From: Candidatus Nitrosopumilus koreensis AR1 | Lineage (GTDB): Archaea > Thermoproteota > Nitrososphaeria > Nitrososphaerales > Nitrosopumilaceae | DNA length: 32,000 bases | Assembly (NCBI RefSeq): GCF_000299365.1 | Contig: NC_018655.1 | Coordinates: 1,020,001-1,052,000 of the forward strand | Direction of reading: 5' to 3' | In this document: piece after piece, positions 4,541 to 31,923 of the stretch | Numbering within the stretch: position 1 is the stretch's first letter | How the letters are laid out: each line of letters begins with the position of its first letter | Translations under genes and position numbers: made by a program | The notes under the pieces: generated by a model | Database searches by the model: none | What the model was told of the DNA's origin: nothing | What the model saw: the letters and a program-made list of their open reading frames with translations, nothing else

Positions 4541-4562
4541 AAATACAGGAGAGCCGACTAGT
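4541..4562 (+). repeat. Left copy of 22-bp direct repeat (candidate attL core)
   Basis: AAATACAGGAGAGCCGACTAGT, identical to 31034-31055. It begins 19 bp after the kinase stop. Confidence 0.8.
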
Positions 4563-7816: not shown

Positions 7817-7851
7817 ATTTTCATATTATGCTGTAAGCAAAAGTCTAGTTT

Positions 7852-8109: not shown

Positions 8110-8275
8110 ATAATGATTGATAAAATTTTGATTTTAGTAATACTGAAAGATTCAAAGTGGCAAGTACAGGATTTTTACAGTTTGTTTTATTTTCATGATC
8201 TTAAAATCAGATATTCACAGGTTCTTCCATACTGTTGATTTTACGCAGTTAAATAGAATACAAACCATTAGAATC

Positions 8276-8650: not shown

Positions 8651-8685
8651 AAATATTTTTTACAATACAAACTAGACGCTAGTTT

Positions 8686-8940: not shown

Positions 8941-8943
8941 TTT

Positions 8944-9462: not shown

Positions 9463-9483
9463 AATGTATGAAATCCTAGTCTG

Positions 9484-9505
9484 TCATTGAAAAGTGCTTC
9501 TGATG
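9484..9505 (-). promoter_or_regulatory. Conserved upstream block, copy C (CATCAGAAGCACTTTTCAATGA on the coding strand)
   Basis: Identical 22-mer at 10747-10768 and 15291-15312. Each copy ends exactly 21 nt upstream of an MKY(L/F) start codon. Confidence 0.6.
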
Positions 9506-9518
9506 ATTTACTTGTTTT

Positions 9519-9683
9519 TTATAGCCCAAAAGATTCTTCAAATGTTTGCCTTGGTTTTGGGTGTGTTTTTTTGGATTGCCTGTTTTTAATCAAGAATAAA
9601 ACAGGAAATCCTGCAATAATTGGTGAGAATCCTAACAACATGAAAAATAATGCTAGGTGTTCTGCTGAAAGCGACATAACCAT
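9519..9683 (-). CDS. Possible small membrane protein (54 aa, below the track cutoff)
   Basis: My translation of the minus strand is MVMSLSAEHLALFFMLLGFSPIIAGFPVLFLIKNRQSKKTHPKPRQTFEESFGL*. That is a hydrophobic helix plus a basic tail, co-oriented with its neighbours. It is antisense to track ORF 9487..9705. Confidence 0.3.
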   Translation of the reverse strand: MVMSLSAEHLALFFMLLGFSPIIAGFPVLFLIKNRQSKKTHPKPRQTFEESFGL

Positions 9684-9824
9684 ACAGAACAAGAGCAGTT
9701 CATAAAATATTCTATTCTAGACACTATTAGATGACTGCAAAATTTGCAAGTAAAAAAACATGACTGCAATCCTTGAAAAATAATTTACAAATTTCTGAAA
9801 TTTTTTATAATATAATTTTCCAGT

Positions 9825-10058
9825 TTAATTTTTCAAGATCCACATACAATTTCCAAGATCAAATTCATGGGTTTGATTTTGTATTAATATTGATGGGACA
9901 ATTTTATCAGGTCCACCAGGAATACAATTTTTTACAAATCTATTATTGTGTGCATCTTCATTTTGTTGTTTGTTTTCCAAATAATCGATTGTAAAATATG
10001 TTGAGCTAACAACTATTAAAATTCCAATTCCAATTATTATCAAAAGTCTAGTTTTCAT
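9825..10058 (-). CDS. MKTR-cassette protein (77 aa), N-terminal anchor, C-terminal CxPGG...THxF...CxW motif
   Basis: The start is ATGAAAACTAGA (MKTRLLIIIGIGILIV), 2 nt after the stop of 10060..10725. The C-terminus is 'NCIPGGPDKIVPSILIQNQTHEFDLGNCMW'. Confidence 0.55.
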   Translation of the reverse strand: MKTRLLIIIGIGILIVVSSTYFTIDYLENKQQNEDAHNNRFVKNCIPGGPDKIVPSILIQNQTHEFDLGNCMWILKN

Positions 10059-10059
10059 T

Positions 10060-10725
10060 TTATTTTCCAAATATCCATGAAATCAAATTGTCAAGATATG
10101 CAAAAATTCCAAAGAATGGGGCATCAGAGCCAACTTTGTCTGTTTTTATTGCTTGGCATATCCCGTCTACCAAAACAGTTCCTTTGCCGCATATATCATT
10201 ATCAACAAACTTATCTGATTCATTTAGATTCATATTTTTCAAAACAGAAAGATTGCGCCCATTAACAGAACAAATATCTCTTTGTACTCCTTTGCCTTCT
10301 TTGCAAATAATCTCCTTGACTACCTGTGAATCCCCTAATCTGATTATCAAATCAGTATCTGCATATCCATGAGTATTTTTTTGAAGATATAGCAAAACCA
10401 CTTGATCCTGCAGGTATGGCTGAGTTGCGTAACTCATTCCATGAGGTTCTCTTGTGAATAATCCCGTAACTGTTACTGTTTGATTATAACTGGATGTTTT
10501 GAAATATTTTTCAGCTTCAATTTCATACATGACAACCCCCAATCTCTCTGTGGAAGTGTTTTCTGTTTTTGTAACCTCTGGCTCAGATAAGATTTCTACT
10601 GATATGACTTTGCCAACTAGAACTATATCTGAATAATCAAATGCGTGTGATGGGTCTAATTGCGGAACAGCGTAAGATATGCTGGTAAAACTGGCAATAA
10701 TTAGTAGAATTACAAGATACTTCAT
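10060..10725 (-). CDS. Secreted protein, 'MKYL' leader-gene family
   Basis: Signal peptide MKYLVILLIIASFTSISYA. The conserved promoter/leader block lies upstream. Confidence 0.65.
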   Translation of the reverse strand: MKYLVILLIIASFTSISYAVPQLDPSHAFDYSDIVLVGKVISVEILSEPEVTKTENTSTERLGVVMYEIEAEKYFKTSSYNQTVTVTGLFTREPHGMSYATQPYLQDQVVLLYLQKNTHGYADTDLIIRLGDSQVVKEIICKEGKGVQRDICSVNGRNLSVLKNMNLNESDKFVDNDICGKGTVLVDGICQAIKTDKVGSDAPFFGIFAYLDNLISWIFGK

Positions 10726-10746
10726 ACTGTATGAAGTCTTATTTTA

Positions 10747-10768
10747 TCATTGAAAAGTGCTTCTGATG
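10747..10768 (-). promoter_or_regulatory. Conserved upstream block, copy B
   Basis: Same 22-mer, ending 21 nt upstream of the ATG at 10725. Confidence 0.6.
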
Positions 10769-10778
10769 TTTTGTATCT

Positions 10779-11330
10779 TTAGTTTTGTTTTCCAAGCAGA
10801 TGTTCCATATCGACAGTTACATCTTTTTCGTTTAACATGGTTATCTGATGCTCAATCTCTGCACGAGTTTCATTGCCATACGAAATCAAAATCCGATCCC
10901 CATCGCTTACGTCATAGTCTGAAACATCATCTATCATATTGTCGTTTACAAAATACTTTAGAGAATATCTTTCATCTGTACAATAACTAGTGCCATTTGT
11001 AATTGCAATGCATTTTTCATCAAGTTTAAAATTCAACGTTTCAAACAGATAGCCAACCGTAACCCTATCGCCATGAATGTGTATGACATCATCATAGGGC
11101 GACTGGAAATTTATCCAATAACTTACTTGTTGGTATTGGGGGTCGTTTAGATCAAACTTTTCGCCATGGATCATGAACAGTATTCCTGCATGTTGGTGTA
11201 CTTTGTTTATTATTGGAGGAGCAAACAGTGACTCTGATTCCTGATTATTCTTGATCATTAACAATAACACACCAATTATAATTACCATAACTACAATTAT
11301 TCCAATAATTATCAGAAATCTAGTTTTCAT
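10779..11330 (-). CDS. MKTR-cassette protein with His-rich motifs (HQH...HIHGD)
   Basis: MKTRFLIIIGIIVVMVIIIGVLLL anchor, with 'VHQHAGILFMIHGEKFDL' and 'VIHIHGDRVTVGYLF'. This could be a metal site, which is inference only. Confidence 0.6.
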   Translation of the reverse strand: MKTRFLIIIGIIVVMVIIIGVLLLMIKNNQESESLFAPPIINKVHQHAGILFMIHGEKFDLNDPQYQQVSYWINFQSPYDDVIHIHGDRVTVGYLFETLNFKLDEKCIAITNGTSYCTDERYSLKYFVNDNMIDDVSDYDVSDGDRILISYGNETRAEIEHQITMLNEKDVTVDMEHLLGKQN

Positions 11331-11336
11331 TTTCTA

Positions 11337-11783
11337 TCAGTTAATCTTGTCCCAATTGAGAATTAGAAAAACAGCATCTTCATACTTGTACAGATTTGTT
11401 GACTTGTCTTCCACCCATTTGTTATAGTGATCAAGTTCAGATGGAGACATTCCAACTCGGATATTATACTCATTAGGAGTTATTCGTACTTCATATTTTT
11501 CATTAGTTGAATCTTGATGGATGACGTATTCATGATCACCATTATTTTCAACAGTAAGTAAAACATCCATCATGTATTTTATTTTTGGAACGTCGTCATA
11601 GTCGGTCTCTTGCATTTGGTAAACAGGATATTTGTCTAGAAATGGAGCATACATTTCTGGATCATCTGAATACATCAGTCCCATTCCTTCATTGTATGAA
11701 GGAACGTATGTGGAAAAATAAAAGACCATAAAGCCCAGAACAATTCCAAGCAATGTAAAGGTAATCAGCGTTCTAGTTTTCAT
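11337..11783 (-). CDS. MKTR-cassette protein (148 aa)
   Basis: The start ATGAAAACTAGA at 11783 (MKTRTLITFTLLGIVLGF) overlaps the ...GAAAACTAG end of the upstream gene. The track's longer 11337..11930 N-terminus is read-through of that overlap. Confidence 0.6.
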   Translation of the reverse strand: MKTRTLITFTLLGIVLGFMVFYFSTYVPSYNEGMGLMYSDDPEMYAPFLDKYPVYQMQETDYDDVPKIKYMMDVLLTVENNGDHEYVIHQDSTNEKYEVRITPNEYNIRVGMSPSELDHYNKWVEDKSTNLYKYEDAVFLILNWDKIN

Positions 11784-12222
11784 TTTCTTTTTTTCCACAT
11801 ATTTTGCATTTGTAATCGCCAAGATCAGAATCAGACTCGTTTGTTTTTCTAGTTTGATCTTTTGAAATAAATTCAAACTCTTCAGATCCACAGAAATTGC
11901 ATTTCCTTGGATGGTATTCCAAGTTTTCAAACTCTTTTTTCTTTTTCAAATATTCTTCTTTGGTGATTTTTTCTTCAATGTATTTTTTTTCTAATATTCT
12001 CAATGCCTCATCGTTTTGTTCTTTTTCATATTCGTTGATTGGATCAATTCGTCTATAATTCAGAAGAGAGTCTTTATCTCTAAAAGCATGTTTTTTTGTA
12101 TACCATAAAATTGCTCCAGCAGATACAATTCCCAAAATCAACCCATATGGAAATGGCATGACTGTTTGAATCAAAAAGAAAACAACAATTGCAGATATTA
12201 TTCCAATGAAGATGGATTTCAT
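11773..12222 (-). CDS. Membrane protein with SHOCT-like helix and C-terminal zinc ribbon
   Basis: The ATG at 12222 (MKSIFIGIISAIVVFF) shares an ATGA overlap with the upstream stop. There are two TM helices. 'ALRILEKKYIEEKITKEEYLKKKKEF' is SHOCT-like. 'CNFC...CKIC' is a zinc ribbon. Confidence 0.55.
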   Translation of the reverse strand: MKSIFIGIISAIVVFFLIQTVMPFPYGLILGIVSAGAILWYTKKHAFRDKDSLLNYRRIDPINEYEKEQNDEALRILEKKYIEEKITKEEYLKKKKEFENLEYHPRKCNFCGSEEFEFISKDQTRKTNESDSDLGDYKCKICGKKENEN

Positions 12223-12953
12223 TTTCGTTTCCACCAATAGATAATTCCAACAATAAAAGACACGCCAAGACTGCTAGCAAGAACTGCCAAAAACACATCC
12301 TCTGAGCTAGTTTTAGATGCCAAAATATTTGGACCATGCATTATGTTCCTAGGCTGACATAGTGCTTGCCCATTTTCACACATTTCATCTAACTGGTTAG
12401 TAGGAAGTGAACGTTTAGACTCTGGTGATGGCATTATCACCCAAGTGTTTTCAGGTAATGGAATTATGTCTGGATTGTATTTCAGGTATATGTCCATAGA
12501 TTCATCAAATCTTTTAATCTCAGATTCATCAACATAATCAAAAGAAATTTTGACTTTCATGTCAGGAGGTAAAGAATTCCTCATGCTAATCGAGGGATGA
12601 ATCTGCAAGGTGTCTTGAATTGCATTGTCTTGATAAAACCCCCAACCACCTATGAAATCTTTAGATGATTGTATTGCATAGTTTTCCCAATCTAGATGAA
12701 TTCCTAGTTTTCTAACGTCATCTTCGTTTAAATCCAAATCATCAACTGCCCTACAAAAAATATTGCCAGGAGTTGCACTACCATCATATCTTGGACTCCA
12801 AAGAGTACGACAGATTTCTAAAAGTTCATCAGGAGTACATGATTCATCAGCAGTTCCCACTTGTTTGTCACAACTAGCATCTGCATTAAGAAAAACAAAT
12901 GGAGCTAATGTGACTCCAATGATGCCAAGCATTATCAAAATTCTAGTTTTCAT
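12219..12953 (-). CDS. MKTR-cassette secreted protein with C-terminal TM + WKRK anchor
   Basis: MKTRILIMLGIIGVTLAPFVFLNADA|SC signal. The C-terminus is 'VFLAVLASSLGVSFIVGIIYWWKRK*'. ATGA overlaps at both ends. Confidence 0.65.
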   Translation of the reverse strand: MKTRILIMLGIIGVTLAPFVFLNADASCDKQVGTADESCTPDELLEICRTLWSPRYDGSATPGNIFCRAVDDLDLNEDDVRKLGIHLDWENYAIQSSKDFIGGWGFYQDNAIQDTLQIHPSISMRNSLPPDMKVKISFDYVDESEIKRFDESMDIYLKYNPDIIPLPENTWVIMPSPESKRSLPTNQLDEMCENGQALCQPRNIMHGPNILASKTSSEDVFLAVLASSLGVSFIVGIIYWWKRK

Positions 12954-13489
12954 TTTCTTCTCCAAAAAAACACCAAACCGACTCCAATTCCAACTCCAGA
13001 TAAAATTCCAAGAATTATTACATACATGTTAAAATCAGGATCAATTCCAAGACCTCCAAGTTCTACTTTATTTGAAGCCAGTTGATATCGTTCATCATCA
13101 GTATATGGGTCATGATCTGTTGAACTTTCATTAATCATGAATTCTTCAAATTGCCCAAAATATTCACCCGTGTTGGGAGCTCTTCCAGAAAAAAAATAAT
13201 ATTCATACACGTTTCTGTTCTGAATTGATTCATCTACCCATTCTTGCAGAGTGTTTTCATTGATTGCCTTTTCAAGTTCAATGCGTTTTTGTTCCATGAA
13301 TTCAGTGCCTTTGAAAGAGTAGTATTGACTCCATTTGTTTACTTCTCCTTGATCATATTTTCCATTTCCAATAGAATCAAGGCATGGAGCATCTGGCCAG
13401 TCTTCGTTTACTATGCAAGATGCAAAAGAATATGGAATTGACAAAAACAGTCCAAAGATTACAAATATTATCAAGAGTCTAGTTTTCAT
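12950..13489 (-). CDS. MKTR-cassette secreted protein with C-terminal TM + WRRK anchor
   Basis: MKTRLLIIFVIFGLFLSIPYSFA|SC signal. The C-terminus is 'DPDFNMYVIILGILSGVGIGVGLVFFWRRK*'. Confidence 0.65.
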   Translation of the reverse strand: MKTRLLIIFVIFGLFLSIPYSFASCIVNEDWPDAPCLDSIGNGKYDQGEVNKWSQYYSFKGTEFMEQKRIELEKAINENTLQEWVDESIQNRNVYEYYFFSGRAPNTGEYFGQFEEFMINESSTDHDPYTDDERYQLASNKVELGGLGIDPDFNMYVIILGILSGVGIGVGLVFFWRRK

Positions 13490-15269
13490 CTTTCCAGTAG
13501 TTCTCCAGCCACAGACCAAGTTCAAGGTCAGGCTCTACAAGTATCGTATCTGTCTTCCAAATTTTATAACAGTCATCAGGTTGTATTTTGTCAATGTATG
13601 TTCCTGTTATCTCAAAGGGCTCATAGACAAACACAGATGAGACATACAGTTCAGTCCCATTGGATGCAATTATCGGAGAGCATACGCGGTGAACACCATC
13701 ATATCCAATGTCATTGTTTGCATAGGATTGCTCTTTTGGAGTAAATTCAACCCCATTTCTGTGCAAAAAGCCATTCCAGACATACGGAAATACAGATTCC
13801 ATACTTGTTGGAATTATTGCATCTGATGAATTAAACTCAATGTCCACATCCCCGCCAGTAATATCAATTATTTTTTGTTCGATTAGTTTTCTATCAGAAT
13901 CATAATATTTTTCAAGAATATCTACAATCAAAAATCCATCACCAATCCCATAACCTACAATTACATCTTTGATGTTAAACGAGCCCCAAGACACATTGGC
14001 ATGATATGCTTCTCGGAGTTTGTCTCGCGCATCAAGTAGAGTCTGTTGATCAGTATCAATGGGTTCTGGTTCAGGAGGAAGAGTTCTCTTAAATTCACAT
14101 TCTTGACTTACGTCACTGAGGAACATATTATCAGGACATGGAAGTACCACTTTGCAGTTTTTTTCAGTTTCATTATAAAATTTCCAAGGAGGGCAAGAAT
14201 TAGGATATTCTGATGGAGGTTCACGAGTTATTCTATTTTCTTGAGTATCTTTTACCCAACCAACACCAGGGTATAGTTTGTATCCTGCATCCAGCATAAG
14301 GTCTCTTTCTGCTTTTGATGTGATGATCAGATTTCGCTCAACTAATTTTAGAAGAGTGTGTTCTTTTACACATGCAGGAGTGCCATTGTTTTTTGTAACC
14401 AGAGTTAATGAGTCTCTGCACTGAATCTCATCAGATGGAACTCCTGACTTGAATTGTTTAAGAGGGGACATCGACCATGGAACAGGATAGACAGTACGGT
14501 CAAGTGACATACCAGAAGGATTTTGCCTTACGACAAATTCTTTGCTAATGTGTACATCATCAAAGTCTATCTCAAGATAGTATTTTCCAGAATCATTGAT
14601 AATTATTGGACGGTCTTCATTGTATCCAATTTTGGTTTGTATCGGAATTGAACTGGAGGTCAAGTCAGGAGAACACGATATTTCTGCACCCCATCCCAAA
14701 ACAAAGTTTCCTTCTTCATCAATTATCTTTGCATCATACGAATTGCAGTCAGCATCAGCAGTCTTTTCTAAAATGAACTGTATGGGCTCCCCAACCATAT
14801 GAGCATATGAAAAATCAATGAATCGGTATTTTTCAGAATCAGTACTGTCTTGTACTAGAACATCAAGTGCGACCTGATCATTCCATGAGCTTTTTTGCAG
14901 TTCATCAGTTTGAAAATGATGCCCAACATATGAAATGCTAAGAAAGATTTTGTTATGCTCAATCTGAGGGTCTACAGTAAGGGTCACTGGAATTCTTTTG
15001 ATCTGTCCTTGCGTGATTTCTATGGAATCAACGTCAACTTGAACAAATTGTCTGGCACTTGATGGGTTTACCTCAATTACAGGGGAAAAATCATTCATCG
15101 TGTAAGGTCCTGAAGTATACAAGAATCGGATGGTCATTTCAGTTGATTTGCCTGCAACTACTTCAGATAATGGCGGATCTATACTTGAATTTCCATTAAA
15201 TGATGATTCTGCAAATGCTTGAGGCATAAACAAAATTGCAACAAATGACAAAATCAAAAAATACTTCAT
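13479..15269 (-). CDS. Large secreted protein (596 aa), 'MKYF' leader gene of the longest cassette string
   Basis: Signal peptide MKYFLILSFVAILFMPQAFA|ESS. Cys-rich central part. The motif 'PACVKEHTLLKLVERN' is shared with 15321..16133. The conserved promoter block lies upstream. Confidence 0.75.
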   Translation of the reverse strand: MKYFLILSFVAILFMPQAFAESSFNGNSSIDPPLSEVVAGKSTEMTIRFLYTSGPYTMNDFSPVIEVNPSSARQFVQVDVDSIEITQGQIKRIPVTLTVDPQIEHNKIFLSISYVGHHFQTDELQKSSWNDQVALDVLVQDSTDSEKYRFIDFSYAHMVGEPIQFILEKTADADCNSYDAKIIDEEGNFVLGWGAEISCSPDLTSSSIPIQTKIGYNEDRPIIINDSGKYYLEIDFDDVHISKEFVVRQNPSGMSLDRTVYPVPWSMSPLKQFKSGVPSDEIQCRDSLTLVTKNNGTPACVKEHTLLKLVERNLIITSKAERDLMLDAGYKLYPGVGWVKDTQENRITREPPSEYPNSCPPWKFYNETEKNCKVVLPCPDNMFLSDVSQECEFKRTLPPEPEPIDTDQQTLLDARDKLREAYHANVSWGSFNIKDVIVGYGIGDGFLIVDILEKYYDSDRKLIEQKIIDITGGDVDIEFNSSDAIIPTSMESVFPYVWNGFLHRNGVEFTPKEQSYANNDIGYDGVHRVCSPIIASNGTELYVSSVFVYEPFEITGTYIDKIQPDDCYKIWKTDTILVEPDLELGLWLENYWKDEN

Positions 15270-20238: not shown

Positions 20239-21573
20239 TCATGTAACATTTACAGTACCTTTCATCCATGGATGTAATGTACAGATATAATCAATGATGC
20301 CAGGATTTTCAAATGTATGACTCCAAGTTTTGCCCGCTTGAATAAATTCTGAATCAAATGATTTTTCATTATCAGTCACAGTATGTACAACAGAATCATC
20401 GTTTGTCCAAGTTACTGTTGTTCCAGATTTTACCTCGATGGAAATTGGATCATAAGATTCCACAACATCTGGATTCCAAGAGCCTTTTACAATTGAAACT
20501 TTATCAGTTTGGACTTTTTCAGTATGGCTGACCTGAACCTGACCTAAATTCTCATATGAGATTATCTTTGGTTGTTCTAATGATTTTATCAATTCTTCTT
20601 GCCATTCTATCATGGAATAGCTTCCTTTGTTGTTACTTGGAGTTTGAATATCAGTTAATGAGGATGCATCCTCAAGCACTTCAATAATTGCCATAGAGCC
20701 ACGTTCTTCCTGAATACCGTGAACATGGAACAAGTATCTACCAGGAGTGTCCCAAGTAGCTTCAATAATTGCAGTATCACCATTTCCAATCAAATGTGTC
20801 TGTGCAAAATATGGTTCATTCCATAAAATTCCTGATGGGTAGACCTGCATTATTGTACTGTGTATATGAAAAGGGGATTGCAACACGCCACCAATACCAA
20901 CTACATAAAATCGTGTCAGATCTCCAGCTACAACTTTGATTGGGTGTTCCATGTATTGACCAGCATACCCGTTAATTGGATAGTATTTTGTAAAATACGC
21001 TAGAGTGTCAGTAGGATCAAACTCACTTAAAGTGAAAAAGTACTCTCTTGCAGGCTCCATTGGTCGTATTGCAGGATCAATTATCATTGTACCAAACATC
21101 CCCATTCGAACATGTTCAGTTGTGGGAAATGCATGACAATGATACATGAAAAGACCTGCCTCTTCTGCGATAAAGTGATACGTGTATTCTTCTCCAGGCA
21201 TTATCATTGGAAACACACCATCATTTACAGAGTCATGAGTTCCATGGAAATGAATAGTATGTGCATATGGAGTATCATTAACAAACTTGACAGTAACATC
21301 ATCCCCTTCGCTAAATCTAAGAGTAGGAGCTGGAACTGTTCCATTATATGTCCAAACTGTTGCACGTTCACCACCAGCTACTTCAATTTCTGCATCTTGG
21401 GCAATTAGTGTATAATGTAATGTCTGAGGATTTGGATTCTCAAATTTTGGATAGATATTAGACGAGTCTGCAATAGTAGTTTGTAATTCAGGAGATTGAA
21501 TCAGTAATGCAGATGCAATACCGACCCCTATAATCACCCCTACAATAACATACAGAGTACTTGGCTTGATCAT
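20239..21573 (-). CDS. Two-domain multicopper oxidase (NirK-superfamily) with fused C-terminal plastocyanin-like cupredoxin domain, paralog 1
   Basis: N-terminal anchor. Copper motifs 'HTIHFHGTH', 'MYHCHAFPTTEHVRMGMFG', 'FHIHS' and 'LFHVHGIQEERGSM'. The C-terminal type-1 Cu site is 'VVHTVT...YICTLHPWMKG'. Confidence 0.85.
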   Translation of the reverse strand: MIKPSTLYVIVGVIIGVGIASALLIQSPELQTTIADSSNIYPKFENPNPQTLHYTLIAQDAEIEVAGGERATVWTYNGTVPAPTLRFSEGDDVTVKFVNDTPYAHTIHFHGTHDSVNDGVFPMIMPGEEYTYHFIAEEAGLFMYHCHAFPTTEHVRMGMFGTMIIDPAIRPMEPAREYFFTLSEFDPTDTLAYFTKYYPINGYAGQYMEHPIKVVAGDLTRFYVVGIGGVLQSPFHIHSTIMQVYPSGILWNEPYFAQTHLIGNGDTAIIEATWDTPGRYLFHVHGIQEERGSMAIIEVLEDASSLTDIQTPSNNKGSYSMIEWQEELIKSLEQPKIISYENLGQVQVSHTEKVQTDKVSIVKGSWNPDVVESYDPISIEVKSGTTVTWTNDDSVVHTVTDNEKSFDSEFIQAGKTWSHTFENPGIIDYICTLHPWMKGTVNVT

Positions 21574-23042: not shown

Positions 23043-24404
23043 TCAAACAGCCTTGATTGTTCCAGTCATCCATGGATGAAGCATACAGTAGTATTCATAC
23101 AAACCCACACTTTCAAATGTCTGCTCAAATGCATCACCAGGCATCATCATGCCAGAATCAAACAATTCATCATTGCTTGTCACAGTATGAACTGAGATGT
23201 CCTTGTTTGTCCACGTGACAGTATCACCTTTCTGAATCTGTGTCAATTTAGGATAGTATGACTTGTTTGAAGATTTTATCGCAGAACCTTCTTCTACTTC
23301 ACAAAGAGTGGTTTCAACTATCTGGGATTCATCGGTATTCTGTGCAAATGTGAGATGTTCTTCATGACTAGATGTACTTGCAGCAGTTTTTGTGATTTCT
23401 GCAGATTTGTCAGGAGATTCCAGTTCTGTGAAAACTTGTTTTTGCCAATCCCACATATCAATGGATTTAGTTCTTGCAACATCAACACCATCTATTGCAT
23501 CAGATGAGGCATCTCTTACATCAAAGTAAGCCATAGTGCCCTTTTCTTCAGGGACACCATGCAAATGGAAGAGATACCTTCCAGGTTCTTTCCATGTAGC
23601 TTCAAAGATTGCAGCATTTCCAGGACCGACCTCCCATGTCTGTGTCTTGATAGGTTCATTTTCCCAGATTCCAGAAACTATAGTATCAAATATTGTACCA
23701 TGAATGTGGAACCCAAATGCAGGGATTGCACCCATATCTACATAATACAATCGGACTAATTCACCAGTTTTTGCAGGCAATGGATTTGTCCAGTATTGAT
23801 CAGCATATCCGTTAAAGAAAACATAATCAGGCGTCCATGTCTCCTGATCTTCCAAATCGTATTCACCTTTGACAAGAACATATTCCCTTGCAGGTTCTAC
23901 TCCTTCTCTAGGATCTACAATGAATGCACCATACAATCCATTTCTAACATGTTCAGACACTGGCATAACATGACAATGGTACATGAAAACCCCTGCAGGT
24001 TCTGCTATGAAATCATACGTGTAAGACTCACCAGGAAGAACTTCTTGAAACACTCCATCATTTTTCTCATTATGATCACCATGAAAATGCATCGTATGTG
24101 GAAGTTTTCCGTTATTGATAAAATTGATAATCACCCTGTCTCCTTCAGTTGCACGTAACGTAGGACCAGGAATTGTTCCGTTATATGTCCAAGCTTCAAC
24201 TCTAACACCTGGAGAAATCTCCAACGTTGTATCTTCAGCAATCACAGTGAATGTTCTTGTAATTGGAGAGCTGTGGACAGAGGGGTCTTGAGCGAATGAT
24301 TGCAAAGGCAATTCGGAATCTAAGAAGAAAACACCTAATGTTACTCCGAGAGATATAACGCCGATGAGCATGATCGTTGTTCTGTCCACGAAACACAATA
24401 TCAC
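23043..24404 (-). CDS. Two-domain multicopper oxidase with fused C-terminal plastocyanin-like domain, paralog 2
   Basis: 'HTMHFHGDH', 'MYHCHVMPVSEHVRNGLYG', 'FHIHGT', 'LFHLHGVPEEKGTM', and C-terminal 'SVHTVT...YYCMLHPWMTG'. The track start is GTG; an alternative ATG is at 24371 (MLIGVISLG). Confidence 0.85.
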   Translation of the reverse strand: MILCFVDRTTIMLIGVISLGVTLGVFFLDSELPLQSFAQDPSVHSSPITRTFTVIAEDTTLEISPGVRVEAWTYNGTIPGPTLRATEGDRVIINFINNGKLPHTMHFHGDHNEKNDGVFQEVLPGESYTYDFIAEPAGVFMYHCHVMPVSEHVRNGLYGAFIVDPREGVEPAREYVLVKGEYDLEDQETWTPDYVFFNGYADQYWTNPLPAKTGELVRLYYVDMGAIPAFGFHIHGTIFDTIVSGIWENEPIKTQTWEVGPGNAAIFEATWKEPGRYLFHLHGVPEEKGTMAYFDVRDASSDAIDGVDVARTKSIDMWDWQKQVFTELESPDKSAEITKTAASTSSHEEHLTFAQNTDESQIVETTLCEVEEGSAIKSSNKSYYPKLTQIQKGDTVTWTNKDISVHTVTSNDELFDSGMMMPGDAFEQTFESVGLYEYYCMLHPWMTGTIKAV

Positions 24405-24495: not shown

Positions 24496-24699
24496 TTGGC
24501 ACCAAGATGTAAGGGACATTGTATTGATTTTAAGATAAAACGATTTGAGGGAGGAATAAAGTATCAAAATGGATTAAAGTGGTGTACGATATGTTCAAGA
24601 TTTATTCAGACAGATCTTATACGTTGTTCTTGTTGCAACACAAAATTGCGAGTAAGAGCTAAGAACAGAATATATCAAAAAAAGATTCAAAGAATTTGA
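24496..24699 (+). CDS. Small basic Cys-rich (zinc-ribbon-like) protein, paralog 2
   Basis: 'PRCKGHCIDFKIKRF...WCTICSRFIQTDLIRCSCCNTKLRVRAKNR' has CxxxC, CxxC and CxCC. It is divergent from oxidase paralog 2. Confidence 0.5.
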   Translation: MAPRCKGHCIDFKIKRFEGGIKYQNGLKWCTICSRFIQTDLIRCSCCNTKLRVRAKNRIYQKKIQRI

Positions 24700-24749: not shown

Positions 24750-25139
24750 ATGCAAATCAAGATCATGGAAATCAAAGGGATGTACATGCTAAAGACATCA
24801 GAATTTACCGAGGAAAAAATTCAAGAGTCACTCAAAATGTTGTATGCAGACAGGCAAAACGAGTTCCGCACGATATCTGAAGTATTCTTGGGAAAAGACA
24901 GATTGAATCAGACTCCAGAATGGAAGGAATTTGTGTTGAATTTTTGTCTGGACGTAGAGGACTCTTTTAAGACATGGTCTAATCAAAAACAGCCATCTAC
25001 AACATCACCCCAAAAAGCCCTGACAATCCTAAGACAGATAGGCAATGGCATGACATCCATGAACCAACTAACGCACATACTGAATCTTGCATTCAACATA
25101 TCAAAGGAGTTCAAAGAGATTTACAGACGTTTGAAATGA
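24750..25139 (+). CDS. Hypothetical protein (129 aa or shorter)
   Basis: Open frame with several candidate ATG starts (MQIKIMEIKGMYM). No recognisable domain. Confidence 0.45.
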   Translation: MQIKIMEIKGMYMLKTSEFTEEKIQESLKMLYADRQNEFRTISEVFLGKDRLNQTPEWKEFVLNFCLDVEDSFKTWSNQKQPSTTSPQKALTILRQIGNGMTSMNQLTHILNLAFNISKEFKEIYRRLK

Positions 25140-25640: not shown

Positions 25641-25832
25641 TTAAGAAAGACATCGTTTATCTTTTAAATCATTTAATCTTCTCGTATTCAATCTGAATTT
25701 CATAAATTCAGGTTTTTTGCTGCAAAGTTCACACAGATGCCAAACATCATCTTTTTGCAAGGATCCAGTGTCAAATTTCACTTCAATGGTTTTTGAGTGA
25801 CTATCATCGCAGACAAAGTAATCATCTATCAA
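25641..25832 (-). CDS. Small Cys-containing hypothetical protein (63 aa)
   Basis: ATG ORF with 'VCDD...HLCELCSKK'. It lies next to the iteron-like region. Confidence 0.35.
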   Translation of the reverse strand: MIDDYFVCDDSHSKTIEVKFDTGSLQKDDVWHLCELCSKKPEFMKFRLNTRRLNDLKDKRCLS

Positions 25833-26142: not shown

Positions 26143-28074
26143 TCATTTTAATTCGGATTTAGTACTTATCCAATCTAAAGGAATTAGTTTTTCCCCATTT
26201 CGCCATCTCTCTCTAATACATGATTGGAATTTTGTATCAGCAGGTTCTGCATGTTCTGTTATGATGACTTGCAATTGCCCTTTTGATTCCTCTACAGTGT
26301 TAAAAATCAAATTAAAGACTCTTGCTAATGATTTTTCATCATCACTACTGAGTTGTTTGGTTTTTACTGATTTGTCTTGTGGATAATAAACCTGAGATGG
26401 TTGATCAAAAATAATGAATCTGGGAACGGGTCTTGAATGTTTTCTAAAAAACTGATGTAGAGCTAAATGTGTAATTATATGATACCCCATCCAATTTTTC
26501 CCACTTCCCGTATTTCTCAATGAAATTGGATTGCCATCTCTTTCTATAATTAGAGTCAATTTGTTTAAATCAAGTTTTATAGGGTATTCTGAATGTTCTA
26601 ATTCTAATTCTCGTGACCACTCTGTCATGAGATCGCTAATTTCATTCAGCGCTTTTTTCGTTTTACGTTCAATTAGACTATCATCAAGAATCTTCTCAAT
26701 TTCCTCAATTTTTGTTTTTGTTTTTATGGTGTTTTTTAATCCTAAATTCTCATCTGATGCATCCACATTTTCTAACCAGAATTTGATTTTTCCAATAATT
26801 TCAGATTTCATCATTTGAATATTTCTTAAATCCTGTTCTTTTTGATGGTACTTTAAAATTGAATTAATTTGTGTGAGCAATTGATTTCTGTCAAAAATTA
26901 TTTTTTCACGTTTATCTTCTAATGAATTCAGATATTTTTGAATATGGGGTTTTTCTTTTTGTGTCCCTTCAAGAGATTTTGCTAAATCTTGAATTGAATT
27001 GTTGATTGAATTAACTTGAGAAATTTTTGTTTTTAGTTCACTTTCACATAATGGACACACAGTAGAATCATGTTTCAATATGTCAAAAAGTCCTAAAGTA
27101 TCTAAGCGTTGTTTTTGAAATTCCATTTCTGTAGCATATGATGCAATCTCCTCATGAGCTTTTTTTAGGTCACTAATTTTTTCATCTAGATAAGATAATT
27201 CCTTATCTGTTTTTTTGATCTTTTCTTGTAATTCAAACAGTCGGCTATCTTTAGGTAAATCTAACGACTCAATTTGAGATTTAGCTGCTTTTTCAAGAAT
27301 TTTTTGATTGTGTTTTATGTCTCCTAATTGGGTATTTGAAGGAATAAGCCCATATTCTTTGGCCTCTGCAATTAATCCAATAGTTTTTGATATGCCTTCT
27401 CCACGAATTGACGCATATTCTTTTTCCTCTTGTTCTAATCTAAACAACTCTCTTCTAATTTTCATTAATTCAAATTCCAACATCATTAGATTGTCTGGAA
27501 TTGCTCCAAGAAAATATGGGGTTACCACGGATAATGTTTTAGGAATCCATTCTTCATCTTGTCTATGGAATAAAATTTTCTTTGAAGCTATTTCTGACTG
27601 ATATTGAAAACAAAATAATGAACTATGGTTAAAATTTACAGAAATTGGGACATTCATATTTTTTGAGATAGAAAGTTTTAGTTCAGAGGGAATACCTATC
27701 TCTGAAGTTAGTTTGTTGCGAACTACATCTGTTGTGATATTTTCATGAGGGGTTTTAGAAGGAGATGTTAATTTTGCATTTTTTTCAAAATATGCTTTTG
27801 TAGATGAATTTTTTCCAGGATTGGGATTTTTACGAGCAATGAAAATTCTTTCATTTTTCATTTGAAGCAGTACTCCATACCAATCAACAGTTTCTCTAAT
27901 TGGGCCTGCAGGAATTGTACATGTGTCGCTTCCAAAACAATATTCAAGTATATCTACTAAAGATGATTTTCCAGTTGTCGAATCTCCAGTGATGATGTTT
28001 GTTGCCCCTAAATGAAATTCTACTTTTCTAATTTTTCCATTTTTTCCATATAGAACAATTTCTTTTATTTGCAT
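26143..28074 (-). CDS. ABC-3C system ATPase: coiled-coil SMC/Rad50-like ABC ATPase (DUF3732-type)
   Basis: Walker A 'ITGDSTTGKSS'. A long charged coiled-coil insert has a central 'CPLC'. 'NTGSGKNW' is signature-like. Walker B/D-loop is 'RFIIFDQPS'. H-loop is 'VIITEHA'. Confidence 0.8.
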   Translation of the reverse strand: MQIKEIVLYGKNGKIRKVEFHLGATNIITGDSTTGKSSLVDILEYCFGSDTCTIPAGPIRETVDWYGVLLQMKNERIFIARKNPNPGKNSSTKAYFEKNAKLTSPSKTPHENITTDVVRNKLTSEIGIPSELKLSISKNMNVPISVNFNHSSLFCFQYQSEIASKKILFHRQDEEWIPKTLSVVTPYFLGAIPDNLMMLEFELMKIRRELFRLEQEEKEYASIRGEGISKTIGLIAEAKEYGLIPSNTQLGDIKHNQKILEKAAKSQIESLDLPKDSRLFELQEKIKKTDKELSYLDEKISDLKKAHEEIASYATEMEFQKQRLDTLGLFDILKHDSTVCPLCESELKTKISQVNSINNSIQDLAKSLEGTQKEKPHIQKYLNSLEDKREKIIFDRNQLLTQINSILKYHQKEQDLRNIQMMKSEIIGKIKFWLENVDASDENLGLKNTIKTKTKIEEIEKILDDSLIERKTKKALNEISDLMTEWSRELELEHSEYPIKLDLNKLTLIIERDGNPISLRNTGSGKNWMGYHIITHLALHQFFRKHSRPVPRFIIFDQPSQVYYPQDKSVKTKQLSSDDEKSLARVFNLIFNTVEESKGQLQVIITEHAEPADTKFQSCIRERWRNGEKLIPLDWISTKSELK

Positions 28075-28562
28075 TATGGTTTTACTCCCAATGATGAATA
28101 AATTGATTCAATTTTTCTCGTTTTTGCAAACCAGCGTCCTATAGTTTCAGCTTTTTTAAAACATTCAGTTTTTTCATCATGTACATCATCTATGGTGTCG
28201 TTAATTTGATAATTCAAGACAGTTATTGACGCGTTATTATCTAATGAAATTTGATTTTGTTCTAACAAAAACCAAAATGAATTTTTTGTTACAGGAACCA
28301 AATCTTTTGCAATTTTATGAAAATGTATCAAAATTTCTGAATTCATATTTAACCAATTTGAGAAATTTTGACGTGAACCATATTCAATTTTTTCCCTAGT
28401 TTCTTTATGCAAAACTAACGGAAGTATTAGGAATAAGAGTGGAAAAGGCATGGGTCTGGTGGAATATTTTGTATATTTTTTGACACATCTGCGCAAAATT
28501 TCTGCACAGAACGCAGGATTAAAGAGATTGAAAATCTCTCGTGATTCATTCGTTTGATTCAT
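28074..28562 (-). CDS. ABC-3C middle component
   Basis: 162 aa. 'FNPAFCAEILRRCV...MPFPLLFLILPLVLHKETR' resembles the ABC-three-component middle-component families. TAATG overlap with the ATPase start and a 17-nt overlap with the effector end. Confidence 0.6.
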   Translation of the reverse strand: MNQTNESREIFNLFNPAFCAEILRRCVKKYTKYSTRPMPFPLLFLILPLVLHKETREKIEYGSRQNFSNWLNMNSEILIHFHKIAKDLVPVTKNSFWFLLEQNQISLDNNASITVLNYQINDTIDDVHDEKTECFKKAETIGRWFAKTRKIESIYSSLGVKP

Positions 28563-29181
28563 TTTTATCCATTTTCGAAATTTTAGTTTTGTAATCTGGA
28601 TGCCATCCTATTTCTTCTTTATCCGACAGTATCTGAAAAGTGCCACGTCTAACAAAAGGAGATTTACATAATGGTCTTATACACAATGCATCAGTTCCAT
28701 AGTTTGCCCATTGAAGTAATTCTCTACCCCGAGATTTTTTGGTATTGTCATGGGAATTATTATCTAAAGATTCTTCCATCTCGTCAAATCTTCGTTCCCA
28801 TTCTGTTCTCAATAAATTATCAAATTTTTTTAATTCATCAAAGAATATCAATTCATTTCTAATCCACTTTGATCTATGCTCACTAGCAAGGTAGAAGTCA
28901 CTCTTGCAATGTCTTTTCGTGTTATCGCCTACAGAAATCCAATCTAATTGTTTTACAAAAGTTCTGTCATCATTAGGCAAATCTTTATCAGATATGGCTG
29001 ATTCGTCAAAATAAATTGGTAAATTATCATTAGTGTATTTTCTAGATATGTCTAAAATTTTTTCTCTAACTTCATTTTTAGATATATTTCTAGATATTTG
29101 CCCCGTCAATCTAAGCAAAACTTCTCCCCACCACCAACCAAGTAATTCATCATACAAATCATTAATTCGGTTAGGAATCAC
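28546..29181 (-). CDS. C-terminal part of the ABC-3C effector (ABC-3C C-terminal domain)
   Basis: 'FVKQLDWISV...ASEHRSKWIRNELIFFDELKKFDNLLRTEWERRF...RRGTFQILSDKEEIGWHPDY'. The track start is GTG. The frame continues upstream after correction of a homopolymer. Confidence 0.65.
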   Translation of the reverse strand: MIPNRINDLYDELLGWWWGEVLLRLTGQISRNISKNEVREKILDISRKYTNDNLPIYFDESAISDKDLPNDDRTFVKQLDWISVGDNTKRHCKSDFYLASEHRSKWIRNELIFFDELKKFDNLLRTEWERRFDEMEESLDNNSHDNTKKSRGRELLQWANYGTDALCIRPLCKSPFVRRGTFQILSDKEEIGWHPDYKTKISKMDKNESNE

Positions 29182-29326
29182 ACTATAATCAAGACTTGAA
29201 ATAATTGCTTTTTTATTTCATTAATTTTTGGGTATGTGTCTATGATGTAGATGTTATCTAATAGACTAAATTTTTGATAATCATCTAGCTTGTTAAATTT
29301 ATCATAATGCTTTTCATGAGAAACAT

Positions 29327-29761
29327 CTATTTTTTTCGCGATTTCATTAATTTTTTTAAAACTGATGCAGTGTCTCTGTTTTCAGGACGTAAGTTAGTTA
29401 AGACTGAAGAATCAGAAATTTTTTGCGTAGTGATTATCATCAACATTGTGTCTTGTGGTCTCAGTTTTTTTTCAAAATATGCTTCACTCCAATTTCCCAA
29501 GGTGTTCCAAAAATCTGTACTGGAATTGGTCAATTTCCCTTTGTCATCCTTGTGGTGTTTGGTTTCTATCCCAACAATAATTTGTTCATCTTTTATGAGG
29601 GACACATCATCAAATTTTTCCAAAGCAATTTCAGTATTTTCGTTACTTTTCAACAATAAAGACAATGCAAAATATGCCTCGTAAACATACCCTACAAAGG
29701 AATCACTTGCGTCAATTTTTTTCATTGTTTGCATGCTATCATATTCATAAAATAATTGCAA
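29327..29761 (-). CDS. N-terminal part of the ABC-3C effector: Cap4/DUF4297-like PD-(D/E)xK nuclease domain
   Basis: 'FVGYVYEAYFALSLLL...IALEKFDDVSLI...IVGIETKHH...LTNSSTDFWNTLGNW' shows the D...ExK restriction-endonuclease-fold signature. The ORF ends at an A7 run. Confidence 0.65.
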   Translation of the reverse strand: MQLFYEYDSMQTMKKIDASDSFVGYVYEAYFALSLLLKSNENTEIALEKFDDVSLIKDEQIIVGIETKHHKDDKGKLTNSSTDFWNTLGNWSEAYFEKKLRPQDTMLMIITTQKISDSSVLTNLRPENRDTASVLKKLMKSRKK

Positions 29762-29821
29762 GTACTTTAACTTGATTGCATCTCAATCTTAGTGTTTTAT
29801 GTAGAGACTTTAACCAATTCG

Positions 29822-29855: not shown

Positions 29856-30998
29856 TTATTTTTGATTTTTATTTTCTTGTCTTGCAATCCAGTTCAAAAT
29901 TTTCTCATTATCTTCTTTGATTTGTTCAAGTTCAGTTTTTTCTGATTTTAATTTCTCGTTTTCAACACGCATTCTTTCATCATCAGATATAGTCAACAAT
30001 GGAATTGCCTTTTGATATTCAGAAAATCTCTCAAAATCATCTTCCTGATATCGCTCATAGTGAGATTCCAAGCCTACTTTATGACCCATCATATCCTCTT
30101 TATCCAAAAAATTTACCTTGGCACGTCTCATCATGGTGTTAAAATATTTTCGAAGACCATGTGCTAGCATAACCTTGTGGCGTTTCTTACCGGGTTCTAA
30201 CGGAGGTCTCAATCCAGCCTTTTTAGCAAGTGTGTTCATTCTTGATTCCATACCTCTTTTGCCTATTCGTTTAGGATCATGAATCCTAACTGAAATAACA
30301 AGAGGTTCAGAGTCTTTAGGATATCTCATGAATCTAGATTTCCAATATTCTTTGTACAGTTGCAGATACTTTCCAGCTTCTGGTGTAAAGTGAGTCCAGT
30401 ACTCTTCATTATCACCATGATAAACTCTCAGAGCACCGCCTTTCAATGAATTATCATCATTGTAAAAGAACAAGACATCTTCCCACGTGAAATAGTCCCA
30501 TGCCTCAATTCTAAATCCTGCTGAAGAAGAAAGCGTTATCATGATTTTATCAACAAGGTTTGTGGCATTTGCCATTAACATTTGAAGTTGTTCTCTAGAG
30601 TATGCCATGTCTTTTGACTTGCCGGGTTTTGGAATGGATTTTCCTATCATCTTCCATGAAAAGTCAATATCGTTTGCAGCAAACAATGCCTTGATTGGTT
30701 TGATTAAATTCAAAACTCTTGCAGGAGAAATCTCTTTAGAATCTACTTTCTTTTTTAATTCTCTAACATATGCATTGATAATTGATTTGCCTATCTTTAC
30801 ATCGTCTCTAACAAGAGCAACAAAGGCTTCTGTTTTGTCAGTAGTGTCAATCTTTTTTTCTTCAAAAATCTTGTCTGGAATTAAATCAAGAAACTTTTGT
30901 AGATCATTTGTGTATTTTTTGCGAGTTTTTTCATTTCTGATATAATCTAAAAAATTCTGAAAAGCAGACGATTTTACATCAGAAATATCTAATTTCAT
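29856..30998 (-). CDS. Tyrosine recombinase / phage-type integrase
   Basis: 'SSAGFRIEAWDYFTW' (Arg I region), 'LAHGLRKYF' (HxxR), 'MMGHKV' and 'SHYERY' (Tyr). The ATG at 30998 (MKLDISDVKS) is preferred because the track start at 31094 runs through the att repeat. Confidence 0.85.
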   Translation of the reverse strand: MKLDISDVKSSAFQNFLDYIRNEKTRKKYTNDLQKFLDLIPDKIFEEKKIDTTDKTEAFVALVRDDVKIGKSIINAYVRELKKKVDSKEISPARVLNLIKPIKALFAANDIDFSWKMIGKSIPKPGKSKDMAYSREQLQMLMANATNLVDKIMITLSSSAGFRIEAWDYFTWEDVLFFYNDDNSLKGGALRVYHGDNEEYWTHFTPEAGKYLQLYKEYWKSRFMRYPKDSEPLVISVRIHDPKRIGKRGMESRMNTLAKKAGLRPPLEPGKKRHKVMLAHGLRKYFNTMMRRAKVNFLDKEDMMGHKVGLESHYERYQEDDFERFSEYQKAIPLLTISDDERMRVENEKLKSEKTELEQIKEDNEKILNWIARQENKNQK

Positions 30999-31033
30999 AC
31001 ATTCTATAGAACTTGGGGCTATTTTAGTAAGTA

Positions 31034-31055
31034 AAATACAGGAGAGCCGACTAGT
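31034..31055 (+). repeat. Right copy of 22-bp direct repeat (candidate attR core)
   Basis: AAATACAGGAGAGCCGACTAGT, identical to 4541-4562. It lies 36 bp upstream of the integrase ATG. Confidence 0.8.
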
Positions 31056-31136
31056 CTCCCCCGCCCTCAGATCATAAGACCTGATGAACAACATACATTA
31101 CAAAATTTGTATAAAAACACAAAATAATTTTTGAGC

Positions 31137-31589
31137 CTAAAATCCCAACAAAACAGACTCACCGGTTAAAGAATCAAAGAATAGTTTTCCGGCTGCAATC
31201 AAAATAACCACAGATACTAGAATCTGCAGATATCTCTCCTTAACATCAATAGACAATCTTGCACCAACCAATCCTCCAATAAAAGAGCCAATTGCCAAAA
31301 ATCCTGCTTGAAGAAAATCAGGATGCCCCAAAAGACTGTGAACGATTACTCCAGATAATGAAGCAAACAACAAGATCATCTGCGAAGTTGGAGCAGCTTT
31401 CTTCATGGCCATTCCCATGCCGACAACCATCAATGGAACAAACACAATACCACCACCTATTCCAAAGAAAGAAGAGATTATTCCTGCAAAAAAGCTGGCA
31501 CCTATTGCAAAAACCATCATTTGTGCAGAGACTTTTTTTTCTTTTGTTTCAATTTTTTTTTCGCAAGAAGATGTATGCAGCTGATGCAA
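31137..31589 (-). CDS. TauE/SafE (DUF81) family permease, C-terminal half
   Basis: 'FFAGIISSFFGIGGGIVFVPLMV' is the second GxGGG repeat of the family. The real start may be the internal MMVFAIGAS, or the gene may be fused to 31549..31923. Confidence 0.7.
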   Translation of the reverse strand: MHQLHTSSCEKKIETKEKKVSAQMMVFAIGASFFAGIISSFFGIGGGIVFVPLMVVGMGMAMKKAAPTSQMILLFASLSGVIVHSLLGHPDFLQAGFLAIGSFIGGLVGARLSIDVKERYLQILVSVVILIAAGKLFFDSLTGESVLLGF

Positions 31590-31923
31590 TCAATACAAAA
31601 CCAAATAAAATTTTAAAAATGTCAGGAGCAACATCACTTGAAATAATTGCCCCAAGAACAGTTCCAGGAACTGACAACAGCCCAAGTTTTAACCCCAAGG
31701 AATATTCTATTCGTCTTTGCCTAGAATATGAAACAGTGGATGCAACAGCATTACTTAGAGCAGCAAAGAGACTATTGCTTGCAGCAGCAATTGGCGGAAA
31801 TCCTAAAAATGTTAAAACAGGAACTACAATTATTCCTCCACCCAATCCAATCATAGACCCCAACACTCCTGCTGCAAATCCCAAAAGAATTAGCCATAAT
31901 TGATCAATCATCGTATTTGCCAA
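31549..31923 (-). CDS. TauE/SafE (DUF81) family permease, N-terminal half
   Basis: 'LGFAAGVLGSMIGLGGGIIVVPVL' is the first GxGGG repeat. It ends inside an A9 run and overlaps the next ORF by 41 nt. Confidence 0.7.
   Translation of the reverse strand: MANTMIDQLWLILLGFAAGVLGSMIGLGGGIIVVPVLTFLGFPPIAAASNSLFAALSNAVASTVSYSRQRRIEYSLGLKLGLLSVPGTVLGAIISSDVAPDIFKILFGFVLIASAAYIFLRKKN

Follow-up and report, generated by a model that had tools for sequence, protein, structure and literature searches.

Does the short minus-strand operon at positions 26143-29761 of a 32,000-nucleotide (nt) stretch from the genome of Candidatus Nitrosopumilus koreensis AR1, an ammonia-oxidising archaeon of marine origin (contig NC_018655.1, positions 1,020,001 to 1,052,000; hereafter the window) encode a defence system and, if so, which one and in what state? 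A reading of the letters without database searches (the sequence-only reading) had proposed an ABC-three-component (ABC-3C) operon with a Cap4-like nuclease as effector, a middle component, and an ATPase of the DUF3732 type that bears a Rad50-like CxxC hook. We conclude, with a probability of roughly 0.85, that the locus is a type II ('short', Cap4-effector) Lamassu, the class also known as ABC-3C or DdmABC, carried as cargo by the integrated element NitKor-E3, that its operon is likely intact, and that by homology it would follow a DNA-end-triggered mechanism. The equivalence of ABC-3C with type II Lamassu and DdmABC, and the composition of Vibrio cholerae LmuA (Cap4 plus CTD7) and LmuC (MC3), are established (bioRxiv 10.1101/2025.06.23.660979).

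The list of open reading frames (ORFs) and direct reading of the sequence revealed that lmuA, lmuC and lmuB form a tightly coupled, co-directional operon on the minus strand (Table 1). The end of lmuA and the start of lmuC overlap by 17 nt (28546-28562), and the stop codon of lmuC and the start codon of lmuB share TAATG at 28072-28076. Every ORF, junction and motif named in the sequence-only reading was found by direct reading at the position given there. An exact-protein look-up located the window in assembly GCA_000328925.1 and retrieved identical proteins from the finished AR1 genome (NKOR_06280 to NKOR_06300), in which the RefSeq annotation calls the operon proteins ABC-three-component and lists the two pieces of lmuA as separate genes.

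LmuB covered the PADLOC LmuB profile PDLC03859 from end to end (E-value 1.6e-130) and matched Pfam DUF3732, now named LmuB_C, at 8.6e-55 (185.6 bits for a cut-off of 25). Its residues 2-637 aligned with the solved chains of Salmonella enterica (9hqu_A, 5e-69) and V. cholerae (9ny5_D, 8.6e-66). The protein bears the hallmarks of short Lamassu ATPases described in PMC12663957, namely a Gx4GKS Walker A, a deviant Walker B, a length of ~600 amino acids (aa; here 643) and one CxxC motif. Its Walker A fits the Gx4GK[S/T] form reported for LmuB in that study, with G30, G35, K36 and S37 invariant in the alignment of close relatives, and FIIFDQ matches hhhhD[Q/S/T/E], the Walker B typical of short Lamassu. 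Furthermore, the alignment to 9hqu_A set CPLC against CPMC, the zinc hook of the S. enterica protein, and C340, P341 and C343 were invariant among close relatives. By sequence, CPLC is a single putative zinc hook in a family that variably has 0, 1 or 2 copies. Two further motifs, NTGSGKNW and ITEHA, occupy aa 521-528 and aa 605-609, respectively.

The middle component matched Pfam MC3 at 1.2e-48, PADLOC LmuC at 3e-20 and, over nearly its whole length, the solved S. enterica LmuC (9hqu_D) at 6.5e-8. For the effector, Pfam CTD7 was recovered in the C-terminal piece (2.2e-37) and in the repaired full-length protein (3.8e-37), and PADLOC LmuA matched the N-terminal piece (3.5e-23) and the C-terminal piece (1.3e-25) at profile positions 4-129 and 187-370. 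The sequence-only reading was right to apply the ABC-3C label, because DUF3732, MC3 and CTD7 all match (8.6e-55, 1.2e-48 and 2.2e-37) and PADLOC calls all of the proteins Lamassu.

The N-terminus of LmuA is, judging from its sequence, a Cap4-type PD-(D/E)xK nuclease domain with catalytic E/DD/K residues. The motifs EKFDDV, IETKHH and FWNTLGNW, as well as the C-terminal ...GTFQILSDKEEIGWHPDY, are present in the ORF translations. Residues 8-388 of the repaired LmuA are colinear with V. cholerae LmuA (9nxx_A, 2.5e-13), and neither frameshift site interrupts the alignment. The IETK lysine falls opposite K57 of the V. cholerae protein, a residue that is reported to be essential (PMC12663957) and is replaced by alanine in chain 9ny1. 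E36, D39, D40 and K56 (393-aa numbering) were invariant in 16 LmuA homologues, and all 15 full-length homologues measure 387-403 aa. Sequence similarity to S. enterica LmuA was confined to the C-terminal domain (residues 259-387, 5.7e-7). An AlphaFold model of LmuA built from the alignment of the 16 homologues (predicted local distance difference test score 87.9) returned solved LmuA structures as its best fold matches, 9nxx at 4e-17 followed by the DNA-bound tetramer chain of S. enterica LmuA, 9hr5_C, at 1.3e-15, and then Cap4 of the cyclic oligonucleotide-based antiphage signalling system (CBASS).

Could lmuB instead encode a housekeeping DNA-repair ATPase of the SbcCD/Rad50-Mre11 type? This reading draws on the arCOG00368 label SbcC, on weak, sub-threshold Pfam matches to the generic AAA_23 and SMC_N families at the N-terminus, and on the proposal that Lamassu arose from SbcCD (PMC12663957). 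SbcCD and Rad50-Mre11 share with AR1 LmuB an ABC ATPase head into which a coiled coil bearing a CxxC motif is inserted and, as predicted from the Lamassu homologues, the recognition of DNA ends, but they differ in their Mre11/SbcD phosphoesterase partner, their much longer coiled coil, their canonical Walker B and their location in the core genome. No metallophosphoesterase match was found among the scanned neighbours of lmuB, and the two genes upstream encode MC3 and Cap4+CTD7 proteins. The specific LmuB profile far outscores the generic matches, the coiled coil is short, the Walker B is the deviant form of short Lamassu, and the gene lies on a strain-specific mobile element. In view of the gene partners and the specific profiles we reject the repair annotation, to which we assign next to no probability.

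Recurrence of the gene neighbourhood was assessed in 84 loci chosen by LmuB similarity alone, among them loci of Nitrosopumilus adriaticus, a Nitrosopumilaceae metagenome-assembled genome, Methanoperedens and Methanosarcinaceae, using purpose-built hidden Markov models of LmuA and LmuC. In 82 of them, LmuA-like (with a Cap4 N-terminus) and LmuC-like ORFs stood immediately upstream of lmuB on the same strand, in the order LmuA-LmuC-LmuB. The conserved neighbourhood that the sequence-only reading had asked to be checked is therefore seen in nearly all related loci.

How does the AR1 locus compare with characterised systems? V. cholerae DdmABC, or Lamassu Vc-Cap4 (PDB 9nxx, 9ny1, 9ny5, 9nyg, 9uxh-9uxl), has the same three genes in the same order, with the same Cap4+CTD7, MC3 and DUF3732 domains. 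The two LmuA proteins are ~18% identical in structural alignment. Loss of the zinc hook is reported for V. cholerae LmuB (PMC12663957), whereas AR1 LmuB keeps one CPLC, and the AR1 system, unlike DdmABC, resides in an archaeal host on an integrase-bearing cryptic element. S. enterica LmuACB (PDB 9hqu, 9hqx, 9hr5; bioRxiv 10.1101/2025.03.14.643221) is the best sequence match of AR1 LmuB and LmuC and shares the CxxC hook, but is bacterial and was tested against phages in V. cholerae. By sequence, having kept its putative zinc hook, the AR1 system resembles the S. enterica form more than that of V. cholerae, which lacks the hook. Type I Lamassu (LmuAB, for example of Bacillus cellulasensis) likewise combines a Cap4-type nuclease with an SMC-like LmuB bearing a zinc hook, and is activated by DNA-end sensing followed by LmuA tetramer formation (bioRxiv 10.1101/2025.06.23.660979). 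However, type I systems have no LmuC and their LmuA tail is CTD12, whereas the AR1 locus has MC3 and CTD7.

CBASS Cap4 (PDB 6vm5, 6wam, 6wan, 7yib) shares the nuclease fold with the N-terminus of LmuA (Foldseek ~1e-3, TM-score ~0.3). We assigned this similarity to the nuclease domain because the C-terminal domains differ: CBASS Cap4 is activated by a cyclic oligonucleotide through its SAVED domain, in the place of which LmuA has CTD7. No cyclase match was found in the operon genes or in the four flanking ORFs or genes scanned.

What would such a system do? The sequence-only reading held that the family has no experimentally worked-out mechanism. This is incorrect, as ABC-3C is type II Lamassu, for which activity against phages and plasmids has been demonstrated and cryo-electron microscopy has resolved the resting, DNA-bound and activated states (PMC12663957; bioRxiv 10.1101/2025.03.14.643221). 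Complex formation, DNA-end sensing, activation as a tetramer and protection have been demonstrated only for the Lamassu of V. cholerae, of S. enterica and of B. cellulasensis (PMC12663957; bioRxiv 10.1101/2025.06.23.660979; 10.1101/2025.03.14.643221). All three AR1 proteins are, on sequence evidence, homologous to subunits of the solved V. cholerae and S. enterica complexes, and we infer the AR1 mechanism by homology with them. Two LmuB and one LmuC would hold one LmuA through its CTD7, keeping the nuclease monomeric and inactive. The complex would bind the ends of double-stranded DNA or similar aberrant structures, for example hairpins, or replication intermediates belonging to an incoming virus or plasmid. 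The ATP cycle of LmuB would then free LmuA. Freed LmuA would form a tetramer through CTD7, in which two Cap4 domains pair into an active site, and the tetramer would cut DNA indiscriminately, resulting in aborted infection or loss of the foreign replicon.

Is the operon intact? The sequence-only reading treated the effector as one gene. Both of its ends are indeed present but, as the expression 'repaired operon' in that reading already implied, six-frame translation showed that in the window it comprises three frame segments (29327-29761, ~29181-29335 and 28546-29181) and not one ORF. The first segment reaches back to a TTG at 29761; the annotated start is the ATG at 29734. We compared the window base by base with the assembly of Nitrosopumilus sp. 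SJ (L002) over 15,333 aligned bases. The two sequences showed no substitution but six indels of one base each, every one of them within an A/T run of 5-9 nt: two in lmuA, two in lmuB (extra bases in SJ), one in a TauE gene and one intergenic. Homopolymer miscounts are the characteristic error of 454 sequencing. The AR and SJ genomes were sequenced independently, both with 454 GS-FLX Titanium only and Newbler assembly, and are indistinguishable (PMC4010524). In SJ, lmuA is intact (396 aa, L002:8339-9529) and lmuB is broken (467 + 199 aa); in the window the reverse holds. Elsewhere lmuA has no substitutions or stop codons, and its catalytic residues are intact.

The two lmuA frameshifts are most likely 454 homopolymer sequencing errors, and the operon is probably intact in the organism, because the indels are all in homopolymers, SJ lmuA is intact without substitutions, the data are 454 only, and the full-length homologues measure 387-403 aa. 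The operon contains four of the six indels, but also ~40% of the homopolymers of the region (P about 0.15-0.18). Phase variation at the lmuA and lmuB homopolymers, as an on/off switch of a toxic system, found no support, the apparent enrichment of indels having disappeared once homopolymer density was considered.

Several points weigh against an intact, DNA-end-triggered Lamassu in AR1. All mechanistic steps are borrowed from bacterial homologues that are ~30-40% (LmuB) or <20% (LmuA) identical. The Pfam Cap4_nuclease profile, which the sequence-only reading had named together with DUF3732 and the middle and C-terminal families, fell below its gathering cut-off of 26.2 (24.0 bits for the N-terminal piece, 19.5 for the repaired full length), unlike the strong matches to DUF3732, MC3 and CTD7; the nuclease assignment rested instead on PADLOC, the PDB sequence alignment and the fold search. 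The finished AR1 genome also has a split lmuA, though it derives from the same 454 data, and a second thaumarchaeal locus, in the metagenome-assembled genome (MAG) SAW134, has a frameshifted lmuA as well. Real decay of a toxic effector in archaeal hosts thus keeps a small share of the probability.

The last two observations could mean that the locus is a decaying relic, in which two genuine frameshifts have inactivated lmuA and abolished nuclease output, leaving LmuB and LmuC as remnants or in a different role. The split is present in the draft AR contig as well as in the window and the finished genome, and overexpressed Lamassu effectors are toxic (PMC12663957), so that loss could be selected. 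However, each of the two lesions is the lack of one base in an A/T homopolymer of 6-7 nt, on a 454-only platform, lmuA is intact in the independently sequenced, substitution-free SJ assembly, and SJ breaks lmuB instead, at two homopolymers. Lesions of the same type also occur in the unrelated TauE and histidine-kinase genes, and a PIN/T2SSE gene is split in one assembly only. We consider a relic improbable; once the window had been compared base by base with SJ, and in view of the 454-only methods, a true pseudogene was no longer the leading reading. For annotation, an intact Lamassu carries a caution: the apparent pseudogene is most likely an artefact, and the AR1 reference carries several such false frameshifts.

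The unrelated frameshifts were located as follows. The TauE/SafE family gene (31137-31923) is interrupted at a T9 run (~31553-31561), which leaves two ORFs of 124 and 150 aa; SJ has T8 there and an intact 257-aa TauE (Pfam 7.4e-53). A gene for a PIN_4 + T2SSE + KH ATPase just past the right end of the window is a single 605-aa ORF in SJ (L002:1362-3179) and is split into 143 + 458 aa in the AR draft contig matching the window (L001:1362-3180), by comparison at the ORF level. To the left of the island, an A7 run (4407-4413) shifts the frame of a histidine-kinase gene (ORF 3027-4427), whose HATPase_c G2 box GTGLGL and remainder continue in another frame up to a stop at 4522. This frameshift appears to be one more homopolymer error from 454 data in the AR1 reference sequence.

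On what does the operon travel? Exact 22-nt direct repeats bracket 26.5 kb of the window (Table 1), with 0 expected by chance. The published element NitKor-E3 spans genome coordinates 1024541..1051055, that is, window coordinates + 1,020,000 (PMC6563490 supplement), and the island is NitKor-E3, with the same attachment (att) sequence and coordinates. As the sequence-only reading had it, the operon lies beside an integrase within an att-bounded element; the gap, given there as 95 bp, is 94 nt from the integrase stop (29856) to the TTG at 29761, or 121 nt to the annotated ATG at 29734. The integrase start (30998) is 36 nt from the right-hand att repeat. In the window, ARAGORN detected no tRNA and no Rfam family matched at the gathering score, and a tRNA or RNA target for att was therefore rejected; the site is intergenic, as PMC6563490 also states. 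The 2019 catalogue lists lmuB as 'SbcC' (arCOG00368) and the other three ORFs as hypothetical (PMC6563490). Most genomic islands of AR1 are absent from Nitrosopumilus maritimus (PMC4010524).

Table 1. Coordinates of the AR1 Lamassu genes, their motifs and frameshift sites, and the mobility features of NitKor-E3, in window positions.
Feature	Coordinates	Strand	Description
lmuB (NKOR_06280)	26143..28074	-	643 aa; 'short'-type Lamassu ABC ATPase, Rad50/SbcC-like, with coiled-coil insert
LmuB deviant Walker B, FIIFDQ	26401..26418	-	aa 553-558; FIIFDQPS spans aa 553-560
LmuB CxxC putative zinc-hook motif, CPLC	27046..27057	-	aa 340-343; coiled-coil apex
LmuB Walker A, GDSTTGKS	27964..27987	-	aa 30-37; catalytic K36
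lmuC (NKOR_06285)	28074..28562	-	162 aa; MC3-family middle component
lmuA effector (NKOR_06290 + NKOR_06295)	28546..29734	-	reconstructed 396 aa; N-terminal Cap4-like PD-(D/E)xK nuclease and C-terminal CTD7 helical domain; three frames in window
Second lmuA frameshift site	29209..29214	.	T6 (+ strand) in window vs T7 in SJ
First lmuA frameshift site	29351..29357	.	T7 (+ strand) in window vs T8 in SJ
lmuA predicted nuclease active-site region, E..DD...E-T-K	29558..29620	-	E39, D42, D43, K59 (396-aa numbering)
Tyrosine integrase (NKOR_06300)	29856..30998	-	380 aa; Pfam Phage_integrase 1.1e-8; XerC/XerD-family per RefSeq and arCOG
att repeat, integrase side, AAATACAGGAGAGCCGACTAGT	31034..31055	+	identical to NitKor-E3 att (PMC6563490, supplementary file 3)
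att repeat, far end of 26.5-kb element	4541..4562	+	exact 22-mer

Does the system defend the cell or the element that carries it? The same Lamassu machinery could serve NitKor-E3, either in conflict with other elements (plasmids, casposons, proviruses) or by stabilising the element itself, with antiviral defence of the cell a secondary matter. The position of the operon next to the integrase inside the att-bounded element is what one would expect in that case, and integrases are also found ~1 kb (Nitrosopumilus adriaticus) to ~3 kb (the SAW134 MAG) from other Lamassu loci of the Nitrosopumilaceae. Moreover, the operon of the closest relative, L003, adjoins an Mrr-type nuclease gene, archaeal LmuBs are scattered among bacterial clades in a manner suggesting repeated transfer, AR1 has other integrated elements and a casposon, DdmABC removes plasmids, and reviews call Lamassu an anti-plasmid/phage system (PMC10586767). 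However, a service to the element is compatible with antiviral defence and does not exclude it, and the sequence distinguishes neither role. We regard a primarily element-serving role as unlikely, if well short of negligible. It is conceivable, at somewhat less than even odds, that the AR1 Lamassu is intact and active and represents the first working archaeal Lamassu, a weapon of NitKor-E3 that senses DNA ends or replication intermediates of thaumarchaeal viruses or of rival integrated elements. If so, Lamassu would be active in a cell with archaeal replication and chromatin.

How widespread are such loci among archaea? A scan of one genome per species with the LmuB alignment yielded 80 loci; those of AR1 and N. 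adriaticus were not among them and were retrieved by exact-protein look-up. Nearly all of the 80 are bacterial and come from many phyla; the archaeal ones belong to Nitrosopumilaceae, Methanoperedens and Methanosarcinaceae. N. adriaticus NF5 carries a triad of 402, 162 and 638 aa, and a triad is also present in the Nitrosopumilaceae MAG SAW134. The closest relative is the uncultured L003 (run SRR22388191; GC content 30%), with an LmuB 80% identical to that of AR1 and a DNA identity of 77.6%. AR1 LmuB has the same level of identity, ~38-39%, with other archaeal sequences as with those of Firmicutes and Acidobacteria. In a crude neighbour-joining tree of 83 LmuB sequences, which has no support values, the archaeal ones branch among bacteria at four or more positions. 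The scattered placement and the equal identities are consistent with repeated horizontal acquisition of Lamassu by archaea. The same placement speaks against monophyly of archaeal Lamassu, the crude tree serving as an indication only.

Two side observations concern these relatives. The SAW134 lmuA is split by one frameshift at L005:6323-7542 (= L006, L015), where …IDQNTSNPSSND* continues as …HLKSFLERLEGWW; the split may reflect real decay or an assembly error, and two of the records are probably from the same reads. The nuclease gene adjoining the L003 operon is of the Mrr_cat/NA-iREase1 type (L003:4251-4958), a defence-island-like setting unlike the context in AR1.

The sequence-only reading had also held that the family has not been studied in archaea. 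Lamassu is rare there, but the 2025 survey counted it in seven complete archaeal genomes, including Thaumarchaeota (PMC12663957). That survey was the only relevant paper found that couples Lamassu with Thaumarchaeota; our literature searches returned none mentioning both Lamassu and Nitrosopumilus, and no experimental work on archaeal Lamassu, which leaves the claim partly right.

What, then, does the locus add? The family, its mechanism, the element and the database annotation are already known, and apart from its archaeal host the locus is ordinary. For the Lamassu field little changes, as the architecture is that of the best-studied subtype and the mechanism is transferable by homology. The gain is in re-annotation: four genes of a published thaumarchaeal element, recorded in 2019 as 'SbcC' and three hypotheticals, amount to one recognised defence system. 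Ammonia-oxidising archaea are dominant in ecological terms and seem to be poorly equipped with defences. An abortive-infection system borne on an element is therefore relevant to their virus resistance, and also to the arrival of defence genes from bacteria. Furthermore, an archaeal Cap4 Lamassu with a zinc hook offers a test case for DNA-end sensing against archaeal replicons.

Some minor features of the operon and its surroundings were also recorded. By eye, an A/T-rich TTATTTTA box was noticed within 29735-29770, ~15-30 nt upstream of the candidate lmuA starts at 29734 and 29725; it could be a candidate archaeal TATA box of a leaderless or near-leaderless lmuA transcript. The integrase ORF can be read as 412 aa, starting 32 codons (30999-31094) upstream of the annotated 380-aa start and crossing the att repeat at 31034-31055; this upstream extension is most likely spurious. 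Between a multicopper oxidase gene and lmuB lie a 67-aa zinc-ribbon-like ORF with two CxxC pairs (24496-24699) and two more small ORFs (24750-25139 and 25641-25832), none of which matched a Pfam family.

Elsewhere in NitKor-E3, families of direct repeats (consensus ...ATTATCAAAAGTCTAGTTTTCATTTT) at 7833-13492 mark where successive genes on the minus strand have their 5' ends; they encode the N-terminus (reverse complement AAAATGAAAACTAGA = M K T R) common to a paralogous set of small proteins, probably membrane proteins or secreted. A pair of multicopper oxidase paralogues with Cu-oxidase domains (20239-21573 and 23043-24404) belongs to a type noted among the auxiliary metabolic genes of thaumarchaeal elements (Krupovic et al. 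2019), and the element further carries hemerythrin and dCache/HAMP sensor genes.

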